64,000 nucleotides of DNA from NCBI GenBank assembly GCA_052389635.1, contig JBQTHS010000095.1, positions 9 through 64,008 on the forward strand, read 5' to 3'. The notes beneath the pieces were generated by a model that had not been told where the DNA came from, made no database searches, and saw only the letters and a program-made list of their open reading frames with translations. Position numbers and translations under genes: made by a program. This stretch comes from Bacteroidota bacterium (GTDB lineage: Bacteria; Bacteroidota; Bacteroidia; Chitinophagales; Chitinophagaceae). Positions 2,884-49,744 of this stretch are shown here, one piece after another; position 1 is the stretch's first letter; every line of letters starts with the position of its first letter.

Positions 2884-5124
2884 ATGAAAACAGTTCCTTC
2901 AAGACTTTTTTTGATCATCTTTATTTACTTGCTGCCCATTCTTGTTTATTCGCAGGGGGGAGTGACCTGGAGTGCAGACGGCAACGCTTATTACAGGAAT
3001 GAGGGCGGTGAAATCGTAGAATACCAGTTACCCGGGAATGAAAAAAAAGTGCTGGTAAAAAAGGAGAACCTGAAGCATGCAGGCGCTGAAAAACCACTGA
3101 CCATACGAAGTTTCAAATTCTCTTCTGATTACAAAAAAACACTCATCTACACCAATACCAAAAAAGTATGGAGGCTTGACACACGGGGTGATTACTGGCT
3201 GTATGATATGAGTAACAGCAAACTGAAACAACTTGGCAAGGGCCGTCCTGTCTCCTCACTCATGTTTGCAAAATTTTCCCCGGATGGGAAAAAAGTGGCT
3301 TATGTAAGCGGGTATAACCTCTATGTAGAGGACCTGGCAAGCGGAGCTGTAAAAACACTGACGAAAAACGGTAACCGCAAACTGATCAACGGTACATTTG
3401 ACTGGGTGTATGAAGAAGAATTCTTTTGCCGGGATGGCTTTCGCTGGAGTCCCGACAGTAAGGCAATCGCTTTTTGGCAGATTGATGCGCAGGGTACAAA
3501 GGATTACCTGATGATCAATAATACCGATTCAATTTACCCGCAGGCAGTACCGGTTGAATACCCGGTAGCGGGTGAACCCCCTTCAAAATATAAGATCGGG
3601 GTGATTGATATCGCTACCGGCAAAACCAGCTGGATGAAAATCCCCGATGATGGAGTGTGGAGAACTTATGTACCCAGAATGGAATGGGCTTCCGGCAACA
3701 GCGAACTGATCATTCAGCACCTGAACCGCAAACAAAATGAAAGCACTCTGTTGCTTTGCGATGTAAAGACCGGGCTGTCCAGAACGATTTACAAAGAAAA
3801 AGATGAGGCGTGGATTGATATACTTCCTTCTTGGGACCAGGACTATGTAAACGGCGGGTGGGACTGGCTGGACAACGGGCAGGAATTTTTATGGGCAAGT
3901 GAAAAAGACGGATGGCGGCACCTCTACCGCATCAGCAGGGACGGGAAAAAGGAAACGCTTATCACCAACGGGAAATATGATGTGATGGACATCAGCACCA
4001 TTGATGAAAAAGGGGGCTACGTTTATTTTCATGCTTCGCCGGATAATGCCACACAGAAATACCTGTGCCGTACAAAATTAGACGGCACAGGTTCTCTCGA
4101 AATGATATCACCTTCTCATCAAAAGGGAACACATGCATACCGCCTTTCACCGAATGCGAAATTTGCACAGCATAATTTCTCAAATTACTTTACCAAACCT
4201 GTAAGCGAATGGATAACACTGCCCGATCATAAAGGAATAAACGGTGAGAATAAGGTAAACGATACGCTGGCCAAATCTGATAAATCAAAATCAAACATTG
4301 AGTTTTTCAAAGTAAAAACGGAGGAAGGCGTGGAGATGGATGCCTGGATGGTAAAGCCGGCCAGCTTTGATCCTGCCAAAAAATACCCGGTTGTATTTTA
4401 TGTATATACAGAACCATGGGGACAAAACGTAACAGATGCCTACGGTACTGCCGATAATTTTTTGTACAAAGGCGATATGAGCAAGGATGGCTATATCTAT
4501 ATTTCTATTGATAACCGCGGCACACCGGTACCCAAAGGAAGGGAATGGAGAAAAATAGTTTACCGGAAAATCGGACTGGTGAATATAAGGGACCAGGCCC
4601 TGGCGGCAAAAGAGATCCTGAAATGGCCGTATGTGGACAGCAGCCGGGTCGGTGTTTGGGGCTGGAGCGGTGGTGGTTCAGCCACACTCAATCTTATGTT
4701 CCAGTATCCCGGGATCTATAAAACAGGTATTGCTATTGCGCCGGTAGCCAACCAGCTTACCTATGATAATATTTACCAGGAGCGGTATATGGGATTGCCA
4801 CAGGAGAATAAAGAGGATTTTGTAAAAGGCTCGCCCATGACATACGCCAAAAACCTGAAGGGGAAATTACTGTATGTGCATGGCACAGGTGATGATAATG
4901 TGCATTATAACAATGCAGATATGCTGATTAATGAATTGGTCAAGTACGGAAAACAGTTCCAGATGATGTCTTATCCCAACCGGACACATAATATATCGGA
5001 AGGAGAGGGGACCAATGAACATTTATCAGGCCTGTACACAAAATTTTTGAGAGAACATTGCCCTCCAGGGCCGGTTGCCCCGGGCGAGCAACCCAAACCG
5101 GTAGTTCCGGCAAAAGGATTTTAG
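2884..5124 (+). CDS. Secreted S9B dipeptidyl peptidase IV-like serine peptidase
   Basis: Signal peptide, DPP IV N-terminal motifs (DWVYEEE), GWSGGG nucleophile, and catalytic Asp/His segments GTGDDNVH and RTHNI. Confidence 0.92.
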   Translation: MKTVPSRLFLIIFIYLLPILVYSQGGVTWSADGNAYYRNEGGEIVEYQLPGNEKKVLVKKENLKHAGAEKPLTIRSFKFSSDYKKTLIYTNTKKVWRLDTRGDYWLYDMSNSKLKQLGKGRPVSSLMFAKFSPDGKKVAYVSGYNLYVEDLASGAVKTLTKNGNRKLINGTFDWVYEEEFFCRDGFRWSPDSKAIAFWQIDAQGTKDYLMINNTDSIYPQAVPVEYPVAGEPPSKYKIGVIDIATGKTSWMKIPDDGVWRTYVPRMEWASGNSELIIQHLNRKQNESTLLLCDVKTGLSRTIYKEKDEAWIDILPSWDQDYVNGGWDWLDNGQEFLWASEKDGWRHLYRISRDGKKETLITNGKYDVMDISTIDEKGGYVYFHASPDNATQKYLCRTKLDGTGSLEMISPSHQKGTHAYRLSPNAKFAQHNFSNYFTKPVSEWITLPDHKGINGENKVNDTLAKSDKSKSNIEFFKVKTEEGVEMDAWMVKPASFDPAKKYPVVFYVYTEPWGQNVTDAYGTADNFLYKGDMSKDGYIYISIDNRGTPVPKGREWRKIVYRKIGLVNIRDQALAAKEILKWPYVDSSRVGVWGWSGGGSATLNLMFQYPGIYKTGIAIAPVANQLTYDNIYQERYMGLPQENKEDFVKGSPMTYAKNLKGKLLYVHGTGDDNVHYNNADMLINELVKYGKQFQMMSYPNRTHNISEGEGTNEHLSGLYTKFLREHCPPGPVAPGEQPKPVVPAKGF

Positions 5125-6731: not shown

Positions 6732-7901
6732 TTATTCAGGTTCTTCTGATTTGGGTCTTGAAACAACTGCTTTGGTCACCAGTTTGCTGCCAAACCTTTC
6801 TTTGATGTCATCCACCGCTTTATAAAGATTGAGCTTTTCCATATTGTTTTCAAACAAACTCATCTGCATGGTAATGGGTATCATGTGGCTGAAGCGGACA
6901 CCCAACAACCGGACTGGTCTTCCTTTCTGGTGTGTTTTGCTGAACAAATCTTTTACTTTGGCGATTAATACATCGTCCAAAGCTGTATAATCCACTGTTT
7001 CCTGCCTGGAGGTGGTTTCAAAATCGGAGTAACGGATTTTCACTGTCACGCAGCCCGTCATCTTTTCATCTTCTCTTAATGAATACGCCGTTTTTTCCGT
7101 AAGCCTCACTAATTCTTTATGCAGGAAATCAATATCGGTATAATCGGTATCAAAAGTGTTTTCATGGCTCTTGCTTTTTTGTTCCCAGTCAGTTGCAATT
7201 TCCACGCTACCCCTTCCGTGAGCTTTATGCCATAATGCTTCTCCCCATTTACCTGCAATTTTTTCAAGATGCTCAACAGGGGTTTTGGCAATGTCTTCAA
7301 TAGTGTAAATGCCAAAACTTTTCAGGTGCTGTTCGGTTTGTTTTCCTACACCGTTTATTTTTTCAATGCCGAGCGGCCAGAGAAATTCAATTTCTTTTCC
7401 ATGGGGGATTTCCAAAAAACCATTGGGTTTTGCTTCATTGGTAGCCATTTTACTGATGAAGCGGGCAGAAGAAAGCCCGCAGGAAATAGGCAGGCCGGTT
7501 TCATCAATGATATGCTGGCGCAATTCTCTGGCATATTTACTTACACCGAAGAATTTATCCATGCCGGTAAGGTCAATATAGAACTCATCAATACTTGCTT
7601 TTTCAAACAGGGGCACTTTTGAAGAAATTATTTCAGTCACCCATCTTGAATACTTGCTGTAATCACCACGGCTGGCATTGGTAACTATCACCTGCGGGCA
7701 AAGCTGCAGCGCTTTCTTCATCGGCATGGCCGAATGGATGCCGAATTTCCTTGCTTCATAGCTGCAGGCCGCCACCACGCCTCTTTCATAACCGCCCACC
7801 ACAACAGGTTTGCCTTTCAGGTCAGGATTGTTTCTAATTTCAACTGAAACAAAAAAGGAGTCGAGGTCAAAATGGGCGATATGGTGTTTTGTGTCTGCCA
7901 C
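6732..7901 (-). CDS. dinB: DNA polymerase IV (Y family)
   Basis: Motifs HFDLDSFFVSVE, SIDEFYID and GVGK; GTG start. Confidence 0.95.
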   Translation of the reverse strand: MADTKHHIAHFDLDSFFVSVEIRNNPDLKGKPVVVGGYERGVVAACSYEARKFGIHSAMPMKKALQLCPQVIVTNASRGDYSKYSRWVTEIISSKVPLFEKASIDEFYIDLTGMDKFFGVSKYARELRQHIIDETGLPISCGLSSARFISKMATNEAKPNGFLEIPHGKEIEFLWPLGIEKINGVGKQTEQHLKSFGIYTIEDIAKTPVEHLEKIAGKWGEALWHKAHGRGSVEIATDWEQKSKSHENTFDTDYTDIDFLHKELVRLTEKTAYSLREDEKMTGCVTVKIRYSDFETTSRQETVDYTALDDVLIAKVKDLFSKTHQKGRPVRLLGVRFSHMIPITMQMSLFENNMEKLNLYKAVDDIKERFGSKLVTKAVVSRPKSEEPE

Positions 7902-7926
7902 AGATGAACGCAGATAAACACAGAAA
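7898..7926. repeat. 10-bp-period CACAGAT array, right arm of a pair around rimM
   Basis: CCACAGAT GAACGCAGAT AAACACAGAAA; overlaps the dinB GTG. Confidence 0.75.
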
Positions 7927-7929
7927 GTA

Positions 7930-8448
7930 TTATTGTAAATAAATATCCAGCAATCCTGCCGGTAAAACTACTATCACTTCCTTTTTCTTATGATTAATTT
8001 TTTGCAGGGAACCTTCATGCAAAGGTATCAGTACTTCTTTTCCTTTTATTTCCAGCCGGCAAAGTAACTGGTGCGGTTGTTCTATCAGCTCAAGGATTTC
8101 GCCAAGTTGTTCTTTTTTGTCAATAATCGTATAACCCAAAAGATTTGCCCGAGACGTTTTGGCGGCAAAATTTTTAAAATCAGCTTCAGACAGCCATACC
8201 TTTTTTTGTGAAAGTTTCATGGCTGCTTCTCTTGTGCTTGCGCCTTCCAGTTTTATATAAACTTCGTCTTCGGATTTTATTTTGGCGCTTTCAATAAACC
8301 AGGGAATGAAAAGGTCTTTCTTTTCTTCAATAAAAATCGCCTGCAGGCCTTTCAGGGAAGTTTTTTTTCCTAACTCATGTTTGAGCAGCAGTTCTCCTTT
8401 CAGGCCATGAACGGCAACAAATTTTCCTATGCTAAAATATTCCGGCAT
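7930..8448 (-). CDS. rimM: Ribosome maturation factor RimM
   Basis: Motifs IGKFVAVHGLKGEL and EVLIP; directly downstream of rpsP. Confidence 0.93.
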   Translation of the reverse strand: MPEYFSIGKFVAVHGLKGELLLKHELGKKTSLKGLQAIFIEEKKDLFIPWFIESAKIKSEDEVYIKLEGASTREAAMKLSQKKVWLSEADFKNFAAKTSRANLLGYTIIDKKEQLGEILELIEQPHQLLCRLEIKGKEVLIPLHEGSLQKINHKKKEVIVVLPAGLLDIYLQ

Positions 8449-8456
8449 TGAAGCAA

Positions 8457-8507
8457 AAATCTGTGTAAATCTCCCGAAATTCTTGGGACAAGTTGTGTAA
8501 TCTGTGG
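8457..8507. repeat. ATCTGTG array, left arm of the pair around rimM, interrupted by a 22-bp insert
   Basis: AAATCTGTGT AAATCT[CCCGAAATTCTTGGGACAAGTT]GTGT AATCTGTGG. Removing 8473-8494 restores a regular three-unit array. Confidence 0.75.
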
Positions 8508-8513
8508 CTAAAT

Positions 8514-8541
8514 AAAAAATCCTGGCTACTAAACCAGGATT
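8514..8541 (-). terminator. Intrinsic terminator after rpsP
   Basis: AATCCTGG/CCAGGATT stem; the adjacent A-run gives a U-tail on the minus strand. Confidence 0.65.
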
Positions 8542-8567
8542 CAGAACTTTCAGGATGCGGGATTTAT

Positions 8568-9014
8568 TTATCCTTCACCACCGCCATTACCTTCGGCTTT
8601 TCTCTCAGGTCTGCGGCCCGGAGCAGTGCGTCTGGCTCTTTTCTGGCGGTAGGCATCTTCCTGGCGTTTTTTCACCTGCACATCATGCTCAGCACTCCAT
8701 TTGGTGAATTTTTCCATCGCTGTTGCCTCATCAAACAGGCCCAGCCCCACACCACGAAGCAGGTGTTTCAGGTACAGTACACCTTTAAAGCTCAGGATGC
8801 GGCGAACGGTGTCGGTCGGTGTAGCACCTTTGTTCAGCCACTCAAGGGCTTTCTGGCGATCCAACTGGATAGTAGCCGGAACGGTCAGCGGGTTATAAGT
8901 ACCTAATTTCTGGATGAATTTCCCGTCACGGGGTGAGCGGGAGTCTGCAATTACAATGAAGTAGAAGGGTCTTTTCTTAGACCCGTGTCTTTGAAGACGG
9001 ATTTTGGCTGCCAT
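8568..9014 (-). CDS. rpsP: 30S ribosomal protein S16 with a C-terminal extension
   Basis: Motifs [31 protein letters not shown] and LGTYNP. The start was moved to MAAK at 9014. Confidence 0.97.
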
Positions 9015-9088: not shown

Positions 9089-9206
9089 AGTCGTTAGTCT
9101 GTAGTCGTTAGTCTGTAGTCGTTGAATGAGAACTGTACACAGAACCATTTTGTATAAAATGTTCTTAATAAAGGGCTAACGACTAAGGACTCCCGACTCC
9201 CGGCTA
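9089..9206. repeat. Inverted pair of heptamer arrays enclosing about 50 bp, with no cargo gene
   Basis: AGTCGTT AGTCTGT AGTCGTT AGTCTGT AGTCGTT (9089-9123) and GGCTAAC GACTAAG GACTCCC GACTCCC GGCTA (9174-9206), which is the reverse-complement type. Confidence 0.85.
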
Positions 9207-10529
9207 TCTCTTTATGCCCGGCATCATCTTACCCAGCGCACCCATCTTGTTCATATTCTTCATCATACCCCGCATTTGCTCAAACTGTTTCATGAAATTG
9301 TTCACCTCCTGGATGTCCTTACCGCAGCCTTTGGCGATACGTTTTTTGCGGTTACCGTCAATCAGATCGGGGTCAGCCCTTTCGGCGGGGGTCATGGAGT
9401 TGATCATGGCCTCTATGCCTTTGAAGGAATCATCGTTGATGTCAATGTCTTTTATCTTACTTCCCACACCGGGTATCATCCCCAGCATGTCTTTCATATT
9501 GCCCATCTTTCTGATCTGCTCCAGCTGCATTTTAAAGTCGGCAAAATCAAACTTGTTCTTCCGGATCTTGGCTTCGAGTTTTTTGGTCTGCTCTTCATCA
9601 AACTGTTCCTGCGCTTTCTCCACCAGCGAGGTGATGTCGCCCATTCCAAGGATACGCTGGGCCATCCTTTCCGGGTAAAATACATCCAGTGTATCCATCT
9701 TTTCGCCACTGCTGGTGAATTTGATGGGTTTGTTCACCGTGTATTTGATGGAAATGGCAGCGCCACCCCTTGTGTCGCCGTCTAATTTGGTAAGTACCAC
9801 CCCGGAAAAATCCAATCTGTCGTTAAATGCTTTGGCCGTATTTACAGCATCCTGGCCGGTCATGCTGTCCACCACAAACAATATCTCCTGCGGATTTACT
9901 GCATTCTTAATATTTGTCACTTCGGTCATCATCGCTTCATCCACCGCCAGCCGACCGGCTGTATCTATGATGATAACATTTTTATTTTTGCTCCGGGCTT
10001 CTTTTACGGCGTTCCTGGCTATTTCCACCGCATCCTTACTCTCCATTTCAATATGGACATCAATCCCGATCTGCTCCCCCAGCACCCGCAGTTGCTCCAT
10101 CGCCGCAGGACGGTAAATGTCTGCTGCAACAAGCAAAGGAGAGAGCCCTTTTTTTGTTTTCAGGTAATGGGCCAGTTTACCGCTGAAGGTGGTCTTACCG
10201 CTACCCTGTAACCCGGCGACCAGTATAACAGCCGGATTCCCTTTTGCATGGAAGGCAGCTTCCTGCCCGCCCATCAGTTCGGCCAGTTCATCCTTTACGA
10301 TCTTGGTCATCAACTGGCCGGGAGAAATAGCATTGATCACTTTTTCGCCGATAGCTTTATCCTTTACTTTATCGGTAAACTCCTTGGCAATTTTATAATT
10401 GACATCCGCATCCACCAGGGCACGGCGTATCTCCTTGAGGGTAGCCGCAATATTGAGCTCGGTGATCCGGGCCTGCCCTTTGAGGTTCTTAAAGGCTGAT
10501 TCTAATTTTTCCTGGAGGGAATTAAACAT
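9204..10529 (-). CDS. ffh: Signal recognition particle protein Ffh
   Basis: GTPase motifs GLQGSGKTT, DTAGR and TKLDG, plus a Met-rich M domain. Confidence 0.98.
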   Translation of the reverse strand: MFNSLQEKLESAFKNLKGQARITELNIAATLKEIRRALVDADVNYKIAKEFTDKVKDKAIGEKVINAISPGQLMTKIVKDELAELMGGQEAAFHAKGNPAVILVAGLQGSGKTTFSGKLAHYLKTKKGLSPLLVAADIYRPAAMEQLRVLGEQIGIDVHIEMESKDAVEIARNAVKEARSKNKNVIIIDTAGRLAVDEAMMTEVTNIKNAVNPQEILFVVDSMTGQDAVNTAKAFNDRLDFSGVVLTKLDGDTRGGAAISIKYTVNKPIKFTSSGEKMDTLDVFYPERMAQRILGMGDITSLVEKAQEQFDEEQTKKLEAKIRKNKFDFADFKMQLEQIRKMGNMKDMLGMIPGVGSKIKDIDINDDSFKGIEAMINSMTPAERADPDLIDGNRKKRIAKGCGKDIQEVNNFMKQFEQMRGMMKNMNKMGALGKMMPGIKR

Positions 10530-47927: not shown

Positions 47928-49283
47928 ATGGGAAGAAAATTATTATTAGACAAGGCTCACATTGAAAACATCAGGCGCTATGATGTGTACCGCCGCGAAG
48001 GCGGCTATCGAAGTGTGGAGAAAGCATTGAAAACTATGAGCCCGGACGCCGTTACTGAAGAAGTAAAGAAAAGCGGGCTTCGTGGCCGTGGGGGCGCTGG
48101 TTTTCCCACCGGGATGAAATGGGGTTTTCTGGCCAAACCGGAAGGAGTGCCCCGTTACCTCGTGGTGAATGCAGATGAATCGGAGCCGGGGACATTCAAG
48201 GACAGGTACCTGATGGAGTTCATTCCGCACCTGCTGATCGAAGGAATGATCACTTCTTCTTATGCTATTGGCTCCAACCGCTCTTACATTTATATACGGG
48301 GGGAATTTGCCTGGATCGTTGATATTCTCGAGCAGGCCATCACGGAAGCAAAGAACAATGGCTGGCTGGGAAAGAATATCCTGGGCAGCGGTTTTGATTG
48401 TGAAATATATGTGCAGCGTGGCGCCGGCGCTTATATCTGCGGGGAGGAAACAGCATTGCTGGAATCGTTGGAAGGGAAAAGAGGTAATCCGAGGATCAAA
48501 CCGCCATTCCCGGCGGTAAAAGGTTTATGGGACTGCCCGACAGTGGTGAATAATGTGGAGACCATTGCTGCCGTGGTTCCCATCGTCAATGAAGGGGGAA
48601 ATGAATATGCTAAAATCGGAATTGGAAAATCAACAGGAACGAAATTGATTTCTGCCTGTGGTAATATTAAAAAGCAGGGGGTGTACGAAATTGACATGAC
48701 CATAAGCGTGGAAGAATTTATTTACAGCGATGAATACTGTGGCGGTATTGCCAACGGAAGAAAACTGAAAGCCTGTATTCCCGGCGGTTCATCAGTGCCT
48801 ATCCTGCCCGCTAACCTTTTGTTGACAACAGCAAAAGGGGAGAAGAGGATGATGACCTACGAAAGTCTGGCTGATGGGGGTTTTGCAACCGGTTCGATGA
48901 TGGGTTCGGGTGGATTTATTGTGCTGGATGATACGCAGTGTGTGGTAAAACATACATACACTCTTGCAAGATTTTATCGTCATGAAAGTTGCGGACAATG
49001 TTCACCCTGCCGGGAAGGCACCGGGTGGATGGAAAAAATTCTCTGGAACATTGAAACCGGAAAAGGAAAGATGAGTGATATTGATTTACTCTGGGATATA
49101 CAGCGGAAAATTGAAGGGAATACGATTTGCCCGTTAGGAGATGCGGCTGCATGGCCTGTTGCCGCTGCTATCAGGCATTTCAGGGATGAGTTTGAATGGC
49201 ATGTGACGAACCCGGATGATGCACAAAGAAGGAATTATGGATTGGCCGGATACGCAGAACCTTTAAAAGCAGCTGTTTCTTAA
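47928..49283 (+). CDS. nuoF: NADH-quinone oxidoreductase subunit F
   Basis: Motifs SGLRGRGGAGF, NADESEPG, GAGAYICGEETAL and ESCGQCSPCREG. Confidence 0.98.
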   Translation: MGRKLLLDKAHIENIRRYDVYRREGGYRSVEKALKTMSPDAVTEEVKKSGLRGRGGAGFPTGMKWGFLAKPEGVPRYLVVNADESEPGTFKDRYLMEFIPHLLIEGMITSSYAIGSNRSYIYIRGEFAWIVDILEQAITEAKNNGWLGKNILGSGFDCEIYVQRGAGAYICGEETALLESLEGKRGNPRIKPPFPAVKGLWDCPTVVNNVETIAAVVPIVNEGGNEYAKIGIGKSTGTKLISACGNIKKQGVYEIDMTISVEEFIYSDEYCGGIANGRKLKACIPGGSSVPILPANLLLTTAKGEKRMMTYESLADGGFATGSMMGSGGFIVLDDTQCVVKHTYTLARFYRHESCGQCSPCREGTGWMEKILWNIETGKGKMSDIDLLWDIQRKIEGNTICPLGDAAAWPVAAAIRHFRDEFEWHVTNPDDAQRRNYGLAGYAEPLKAAVS

Positions 49284-49744
49284 AGTAAAAAATCAAAAGC
49301 CAAAATTCAAAACCGTGGAAGAAATATTTGAGACTTTTGAAGTAAATGAAGGGGAGAAACCTTATAATATTAGGCATAGGTGCTACTATTTTTCGAAGGA
49401 AGTAGTGCTGTATGTGAAAGCTTGTAAATATGATAAAGTTTATCATTCAGTATTTGACCAACTGATAAGAAGCGCAACATCCATTGGAGCTAACCTGGTT
49501 GAAGGCAGAGCGGGCAGTTCGAGAAAAGACTGGAAAAATTTTTATGTTATAGCCCTGAAGTCTGCCAATGAAACAAAATATTGGCTGTGCTTGATTAGAG
49601 ACACAATGGAAACAGACAAATTAAAAATAAAGGAGCTGATAACTGAAGCGGAAGAGATTTCAAATATTATTGCTACAATTATAGTGAATGCCCGGAAGGG
49701 GGGAGGTTTTTGACTTTTTAATTTTGACTTTTGACTTTTGAATT
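49282..49744. mobile_element. Putative cassette: a four-helix-bundle gene between inverted heptamer arrays
   Basis: Left arm AAAGTAA AAAATCA AAAGCCA AAATTCA AAA (49282-49312); right arm TTTTGAC TTTTTAA TTTTGAC TTTTGAC TTTTGAA TT (49708-49744). Mobility is inferred, not shown. Confidence 0.6.
49315..49713 (+). CDS. Four-helix-bundle protein (23S rRNA IVP / TIGR02436-like)
   Basis: Motifs QLIRSATSIGANLVEG and ALKSANETKYWL; GTG start. Confidence 0.92.
   Translation: MEEIFETFEVNEGEKPYNIRHRCYYFSKEVVLYVKACKYDKVYHSVFDQLIRSATSIGANLVEGRAGSSRKDWKNFYVIALKSANETKYWLCLIRDTMETDKLKIKELITEAEEISNIIATIIVNARKGGGF

Follow-up and report, generated by a model that had tools for sequence, protein, structure and literature searches.

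The window analysed here, a 64,000-nt stretch of DNA taken as a whole, carries the gene cluster ffh-rpsP-rimM-dinB on its minus strand, in an order that is maintained across the genus (Table 1). An exact-protein look-up of the enclosed gene product, RimM, gave no match, the closest protein having at most about 82% identity. Read in mRNA sense, a terminator-like hairpin, the equivalent of which was found in all genus relatives, comes after the rpsP stop; beyond it lie 9 nt, a first repeat array (the 5' arm), the hexamer GCTTCA and the rimM ATG at 8448. The spacer between the rimM stop (TAA, 7932-7930) and dinB comprises only 28 nt and is mostly occupied by a second array (the 3' arm). The likely start of dinB is the GTG at 7901-7899, which lies within the terminal GTGGC of the 3' arm, the final GTG of the arm being the first canonical dinB start codon; GTG or TTG starts of dinB also occur in relatives, 4-8 codons ahead of the HIAHFD motif. 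The preliminary description of this locus had reported inverted CACAGAT/ATCTGTG arrays on either side of rimM, and this was borne out, the strings that it quoted being exact and the arrays reaching family scores of 36 and 30 (see below). A gene-less inverted pair with other words lies between ffh and rpsP, so that the adjacent spacer of the same gene cluster holds repeat arrays too.

Table 1. Features of the ffh-rpsP-rimM-dinB cluster and of a comparison cassette, in positions of the window.
Feature	Position	Strand	Basis or remark
ffh	9204-10529	-	ORF and family match
Gene-less inverted pair, GGAGTC/AGTCGTT words, between ffh and rpsP	9089-9206	-	
rpsP	8568-9014	-	ORF and family match
Terminator-like hairpin of rpsP, 11-bp stem and T-run	8517-8542	-	ends 9 nt before the 5' arm
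5' arm (A)	8454-8508	-	family score 30
Nested 22-nt hairpin mini-module, CCCGAAATTCTTGGGACAAGTT on the + strand	8473-8494	+	splits the middle word of the 5' arm
GATTTTTG, possible -7 promoter box	8454-8461	-	sequence; putative promoter function
rimM, enclosed gene, 172 aa	7930-8448	-	TIGR02273, 71.7 bits against a cut-off of 66.2
3' arm (A')	7897-7927	-	family score 36
dinB (DNA polymerase IV)	6732-7901	-	ORF and family match
Comparison cassette: four-helix-bundle gene, TCAAAAG-word arms, between nuoF and nuoG	49282-49744	+	

The 5' arm, directly 5' of the rimM ATG, reads in mRNA sense GCCACAGATTACAC, then a 22-nt insertion, AACTTGTCCCAAGAATTTCGGG, and then AGATTTACACAGATTTTTG; with the insertion left out, it aligns in register with intact three-word arms of relatives. 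The 3' arm reads CTTTCTGTGTTTATCTGCGTTCATCTGTGGC in the same sense, with three phased words of about 10 nt and GTGGC at its outer end, and TTTCTGTGTTTATCTGCGTTCATCTGTGGC (7926-7897) starts 3 nt past the rimM TAA. Each of the arms carries three phased words together with the family-terminal GCCAC/GTGGC, the features by which arms of GxxExxY-type cassettes are recognised. The insertion itself is a recurrent module, since the pattern CCCN{5,12}GGGACAAGTT has five copies in the genome (four besides the one in the 5' arm) against two in a reversed control, and it comes after the A' arm, just ahead of the dinB start, in the rimM-dinB spacer of four relatives (L189, L198, L203 and L206). Promoters of Bacteroidota have a -7 box of consensus TAnnTTTG. 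The string GATTTTTG, built from the inner end of the 5' arm and flanking sequence, is on its letters likely to be a candidate box of this type for rimM; the upstream arm of relatives ends in GATTATATTTG, and there GATTAT joined to ATTTG gives TATATTTG, which fits the consensus. A sigma-70 promoter scan at the locus was uninformative, as it is for Bacteroidota.

Considered as a generic inverted repeat, the arm pair is not beyond chance. The flank-complementarity score of rimM was 22, at about rank 429 of 3155 genes, and 316 genes scored 22 or more in a reversed-sequence control. Similarly, the window has two copies of CCACAGAT, 1.76 being expected, and an inverted-repeat search of 800 nt around the locus returned one perfect 9-mer and one 13-mer at 85% among 34 pairs. 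This alignment score with its reversed-sequence control replaced an RNAduplex ranking of the 3155 gene flanks in 140-nt windows, which was dropped because long spurious duplexes dominated the energies (null median -43.5). As members of a repeat family, in contrast, the arms are beyond chance. Scored against the 31-nt family consensus, the 3' arm reached 36 and the 5' arm 30, while the maximum of the null, 702 windows within rimM and dinB coding sequence at the loci compared, was 20; a score of 30 or more was attained in just 24 of 116,930 windows of the genome. Family scores were gapped local scores; a consensus scan without gaps had been dropped after a register shift of 1 nt caused it to overlook the 3' arm.

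The unit of this family is a 31-nt array of three phased CACAGAT-type words of about 10 nt, with terminal GCCAC/GTGGC. About 16 arms were found at about 12 loci of this genome, in the form of one full cassette (C29), gene-less pairs (C145, C59, C26 and C137) and lone arms (C138, C115, C21, C145 and C24), and the family thus shows the many intergenic copies, both single and in inverted pairs, and the quick turnover of a dispersed repeat. The full cassette holds a GxxExxY gene between GCCACGGATTGCACAGATTAACACGGATTA and its complement, and these arms have the CACAGAT/CACGGAT words, the period and the GCCAC end in common with the arms around rimM. The earlier statement that arrays of 9-10-mers flank GxxExxY genes, a group which is mentioned very rarely in the literature searched, held for this genome: all seven GxxExxY loci, and all 12 four-helix-bundle loci as well, lie between inverted word arrays, the word differing from cassette to cassette among these 19 loci. 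The link of the family to GxxExxY genes is one of co-occurrence. Same-word arrays also surround ordinary genes of this genome. A gene on C58, which encodes 484 aa with CarboxypepD_reg and TonB_C domains, lies between 33-nt GGAGTC-word arms; its ortholog in genome G001 is also bracketed. At three further loci (C54, C112 and C125) a pair or cassette has a third arm with the same words at a distance of one gene. TIGR04256 (GxxExxY) had no match on the rimM contig, and the arms enclose rimM, so the cargo here is not a GxxExxY gene. The comparison cassette within the window holds a TIGR02436 four-helix-bundle gene between arms matching at 22 of 25 positions. The rimM pair, for which the same architecture had been described, is much weaker.

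Identity between the two arms across rimM is about 21/31 with one indel, whereas the arms of 14 of the 19 cassettes of this genome match at 78-97%. The rimM arms are not each other's closest copies, as would be expected of the arms of one element. The 3' arm is nearer to an arm on another contig of the genome (C137:9882), with which it has the exact 18-mer TATCTGCGTTCATCTGTG in common; its variant CACAGATGAACGCAGATA, identical at C137, is present in 26 of 61 genus genomes against none in a reversed control, and in genome G013 it stands on either side of a GxxExxY gene. The arms of rimM belong to different subfamilies, and the 5' arm is disrupted.

The state of both spacers was followed through relatives on a tree built from Ffh, RpsP, RimM and DinB, which included 81 loci, 78 of them scored for both arms. 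An upstream arm was present at 17 of 66 scored loci of a first set and in 20 of 77 species genomes, and in relatives it begins at the same spot, just past the T-run of the rpsP terminator. Five relatives have the upstream arm only, with dinB 9-12 nt past rimM (L025, L027, L038, L057 and L058), and one (L207) has the downstream arm only. Whole pairs lie within the rpsP-rimM spacer of L024/L053, L029, L190 and L232, and within the rimM-dinB spacer of L032 and L074. A rimM-spanning pair, at one point assigned to L074, was discarded, since the partner of its downstream arm sits in the same spacer and this pair is homologous to that of L032. In L232 a new CACGAAA pair is found inside the old upstream arm, of which only the last word is left. 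Parsimony over the 78 species required at least 11 changes of state for the upstream arm and at least six for the downstream arm, and the presence of one was not significantly associated with that of the other, both arms occurring in four of the 78 species against 2.3 expected.

The genome studied here is sister to L190 in a well-supported clade of five species. From 22 genus relatives and 80 metagenome loci the 3' arm had appeared private to this genome, a view that was abandoned once 80 species genomes were compared, as an arm stands immediately ahead of dinB in four of the five species of this clade. Within the clade, it is only in this genome that a lone arm upstream is accompanied by a lone arm downstream: in L190 a complete hairpin pair lies upstream and a third arm downstream, the upstream arrays of L227 and L232 are other ones, and L238 has none. 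Neither the remaining species of the clade nor most of the 78 species have the bracket of lone arms, and conserved or compensated pairing was not found among them. An earlier proposal had been to look beside rimM in relatives for a GxxExxY gene or an empty pair. Gene-less pairs were indeed found in either spacer, but 30 relatives had neither a GxxExxY gene nor a remnant of one at 1.5 kb or less from rimM. The best reading of the bracket is that it is one of many states, in which a widespread, interrupted arm of 5' type is combined with a clade-level arm of 3' type from a different subfamily.

The two spacers are nevertheless not without connection. In the lineage of L059/L060/L064 and L189/L198, the arms on either side of rimM share the word variants GGGTA and GGTTAA and pair best with each other (-30.6 kcal/mol for the cognate arms, -13.7 to -22.4 kcal/mol for swaps), a cognate arm pair across rimM being limited to this L060/L189 lineage. 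In the sister species L190, CACGAAT/CACTAAT words stand on both sides of rimM, in the places where this genome has CACAGAT. Over the 78 species, cognate upstream and downstream spacers had 99 7-mers in common against 78 +/- 11 when permuted (p = 0.04). These results show that exchange, or selection, links the two rimM spacers, and the words and pairing shared across rimM mean that the arms are therefore not fully independent. The outcome that had been named as decisive against a functional bracket, namely that each arm would be an independent half-remnant in relatives, was largely found, the spacers of relatives each being in a half, paired or empty state of their own. That neighbouring spacers share words we read as a sign that arrays near each other undergo local copying or gene conversion. 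By our own estimate, the chance that two of about 12 family loci placed uniformly at random would be adjacent in inverted orientation is 0.01-0.04; the adjacency is unlikely under uniform placement, and the explanation that we favour below therefore needs the assumption of a hot-spot and of local spread.

Three other explanations were weighed. It is extremely unlikely that two unrelated short matches flank rimM by chance: the generic inverted-repeat score is ordinary and the 8-mer is about as frequent in the window as expected, but the family-consensus scores far above the null maximum, and the three phased words and terminal GCCAC in each arm, argue against it. An RNA stem, in which the arms would pair across rimM in rpsP read-through RNA and form either a substrate for a double-strand RNase, of the kind known from rRNA intervening sequences (IVSs), or a mask over the dinB GTG, uncoupling rimM from rpsP or limiting DinB synthesis, has more in its favour, although we regard it as unlikely. 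The predicted arm-arm duplex had an energy of -30.0 kcal/mol, against -14.2 +/- 3.4 kcal/mol with a shuffled 3' arm (none of 500 shuffles was as good), and in a 631-nt RNA both the MFE and the centroid fold close the rimM cistron by the arm stem. The stem of about 25 bp previously proposed to loop out the cistron was in this respect recovered, but as about 23 bp spread over five helices, of which the longest have 9 and 7 bp; there is no single 25-bp helix because of the 22-nt insertion that splits the 5' arm. The dinB GTG, lying within the terminal GTGGC of the 3' arm, is therefore within the predicted outer helix of 9 bp, the genome has a gene for RNase III, and the L060/L189 lineage has its cognate arm pair. 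Against this, the longest unbroken helix is that of 9 bp, and the stem is not the largely continuous one of about two helical turns expected of an IVS-like RNase III substrate. The strong terminator hairpin (8542-8517) just ahead of the 5' arm and the -7-like box behind it bear on whether both arms share one transcript, and transcripts from a rimM promoter at this box would therefore be without the 5' arm. The 3' arm shows no particular match to the 5' arm across rimM: in a swap test it paired better with foreign 5' arms (-35.8 kcal/mol with that of L030, -32.6 with L060 and -32.3 with L074) than with its own (-30.0 kcal/mol). Full cassettes scored alike gave -38 to -75 kcal/mol, and rimM -44 kcal/mol in the same window size. 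Arm mismatches in the 19 cassettes of this genome comprised 24 sense-strand G-U, 40 antisense G-U and 55 transversions, without a sense-strand G-U excess and thus without a sign of selection for pairing in the sense RNA. An Rfam search gave no match, and most relatives, including L227, L232 and L238 of the closest clade, are without the bracket. The suggestion that the arms serve as a conserved processing stem for rimM lacks support, there being no retention of the bracket in the closest five-species clade and no bias towards sense-strand G-U.

It is more doubtful still that the arms are a working DNA-level pair, matched by exchange, with rimM as a cargo that is invertible, excisable or swappable between strains, as seems to be the case for GxxExxY genes. 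Same-word arrays around ordinary genes (the C58 gene and its G001 ortholog, C54, C112 and C125) would be consistent with such a host-gene cassette, as would the co-variation of words across rimM between sister species and the cognate 7-mer sharing (p = 0.04). However, the order and orientation of ffh-rpsP-rimM-dinB are fixed in the genus relatives checked, rimM showed no sign of movement and had no GxxExxY gene nearby, the arms are of differing subfamily with one disrupted, and the bracket states are scattered over the tree. The idea that the arms had captured a housekeeping gene is thus not supported, because the spacers of relatives each carry their own half, pair or nothing. A broader form of this idea, which we likewise consider improbable, is that word-array arms, through local inverted copying and continuing exchange, can frame host genes as working cassettes that are processed, insulated or exchanged like the small cargo genes, with both sides kept in the same species-specific words; the instances to which it would apply are rimM, here and in the L060/L189 lineage, and the 484-aa TonB-like gene in two species.

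Instead of forming one element, the two arms around rimM probably belong, each on its own, to a single dispersed repeat family whose local spread takes place at the DNA level. The arms belong to this family, the family is dispersed and turns over, and the two arms lack pair-specific matching to each other. A DNA-level mechanism of spreading would fit these observations, and a GxxExxY protein may have a part in it in trans. Time and again, and at the DNA level, arrays of the family would insert into the spacers of the ffh-rpsP-rimM-dinB cluster, next to terminators and within existing arrays; their words would be homogenised and rewritten together, so that nearby spacers tend toward common words, and the elements would then decay to half-elements. 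Such a course could leave a lone 5'-type arm before rimM and a lone 3'-type arm after it, and with lone arms on either side rimM would resemble cargo while being uncaptured. A -7-like box for rimM may owe part of its sequence to the inner end of the upstream arm, and the GTG start of dinB may be provided by the outer GTGGC of the downstream one. Pairing of the arms in rpsP read-through RNA could mask this GTG.

The closest published analogues are ORF-bearing rRNA IVSs, the REP/BIME and RAYT system, and the Ssn nucleases with their NTS repeats. The arms of an IVS form a stem that RNase III removes. The 23S rRNA of Coxiella burnetii, for example, has an IVS with an S23p four-helix-bundle ORF (PMC4990558). 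The rimM locus is like an ORF-bearing IVS in that a gene-sized insert lies between complementary arms, and the four-helix-bundle cassette of the window (49282-49744) belongs to the same protein family as the S23p ORF. Unlike an IVS, rimM is a host housekeeping gene, its arms are short, discontinuous and unmatched, it lies at an mRNA spacer rather than in rRNA, its bracket is unconserved in relatives, and its processing is only hypothetical. REP/BIME repeats and the REPIN-RAYT system of Proteobacteria consist of scattered spacer repeats found as single units, inverted doublets and clusters, with fast turnover and a small enzyme gene flanked by repeats, RAYT being the enzyme that mobilises REP elements. 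The CACAGAT family resembles these in its single, paired or clustered spacer repeats, their quick turnover and a repeat-flanked small enzyme gene. In contrast to REP, its unit is an array of three phased words of 9-10 nt and not a single imperfect palindrome, its words are rewritten together between species, and the associated genes encode GxxExxY, a PD-(D/E)XK protein, and four-helix-bundle proteins rather than a Y1 transposase. In Neisseria, small single-domain Ssn nuclease genes are flanked by their own NTS/SRM repeats; Ssn is a GIY-YIG enzyme, the repeat is a hairpin of about 30 bp cut as ssDNA, many further NTS copies lie around other genes, and nuclease-repeat pairs co-evolve (PMC11893778). 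The likeness here is of a small nuclease gene flanked by its own repeats, further copies of which surround other genes, while the unit of the present family is a phased word array and binding or cutting by GxxExxY is putative.

Were rimM truly captured, or excised by way of a dedicated stem, an undescribed cassette system could take host genes as its cargo. The evidence points to something more ordinary, namely two half-elements of a repeat family that saturates the spacers of this operon. The points of entry of its arrays are fixed and lie next to terminators or within arrays already present; the words of the arrays change jointly, in part on both sides of a 0.5-kb gene, and decay of the arrays leaves lone arms. 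The ends of such arms may become host signals, as with the -7-like box for rimM and the GTG starts of dinB and, in other species, of rimM. This behaviour of the arrays provides the background for work on GxxExxY proteins and the words that flank them.

The GTG start codon of the following gene (GTG GCA GA.) would repeatedly come from the terminal GTGGC of a 3'-type arm. This would apply to dinB in the window and likewise in the sister species (L190), and to rimM in several other species. In one relative (L232:540-690), a complete CACGAAA-word pair was nested within the former CACAGAT upstream arm, of which the sole remnant was the last word (GTCACAGATTAT), lying before the rimM -7 region. The neighbouring ffh-rpsP spacer is occupied by a gene-less inverted pair, which begins at the ffh stop codon and stops just short of the rpsP promoter region.

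The insertion in the rimM upstream arm is a 21-22-nt hairpin mini-module of the form (T)CCCG-loop-CGGGACAAGTT, often followed by GTG/ATG-TG, and the own genome contained five copies of it versus two in a reversed control. At four loci in relatives (L189, L198, L203 and L206), the mini-module separated the downstream arm from the start codon of dinB.

Features of the rimM region, other contigs of the same genome (C) and loci in relatives (L)
Feature	Location	Strand	Detail
Gene-less inverted pair	window 9089-9206		GGAGTC/AGTCGTT heptamer words
Hairpin mini-module	window 8473-8494	+	22 nt
Mini-module copy	C5:69798-69818	-	
Mini-module copy	C29:61977-61997	+	
Mini-module copy	C71:28324-28344	-	
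Mini-module copy	C86:23855-23875	+	
Putative arm-derived dinB GTG	window 7899-7901		
Putative arm-derived rimM GTG	L034, L083, L227		
Array triplet	C54:2700-4080		
Array triplet	C112:6140-7960		
Array triplet	C125:10280-11420		
484-aa gene	C58:22712-24166	-	CarboxypepD_reg + TonB_C domains
Arms of its G001 ortholog	L160:1430-1450 / 2946-2966		
purA between palindromes	C33:43539-44804		GCTTGTCCGCCGAAGTCCC..GGGACGAAGGCGGAC
IS200/RAYT-like gene	C134:5872-6315		small
IS200/RAYT-like gene	C51:11198-11632		small
IS200/RAYT-like gene	C2:8467-8961		small
IS200/RAYT-like gene	C25:26689-27060		small

Hairpin repeats of other kinds were also present. The near-identical 60-nt palindromic elements, one on each side of purA, are a separate, REP-like hairpin family, distinct from the word arrays. 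Four genes, called IS200/RAYT-like from N-terminal sequence alone (e.g. MSYRQIYYQIVFGTKHRKP), each have inverted GC-rich hairpin repeats on either side, an indication that the genome also carries a separate REP/RAYT-type system.

Word arrays also bracket an ordinary gene on C58, downstream of a sigma-factor-like gene, with 33-nt inverted GGAGTC/TTAGTC arms (complementarity 85-88%) whose distance from it is ~87 nt on the upstream and ~74 nt on the downstream side. Its ortholog in another species (G001) was bracketed too, by 21-nt arms of these words, and bracketing arms were absent at seven other orthologs. In each of three triplets, a cassette or gene-less pair is accompanied by a third arm built from its words, with a single ordinary gene lying between them (a CN hydrolase, a CNNM/CorC transporter and a metallo-beta-lactamase-fold protein), suggesting that the arrays are copied over short range.
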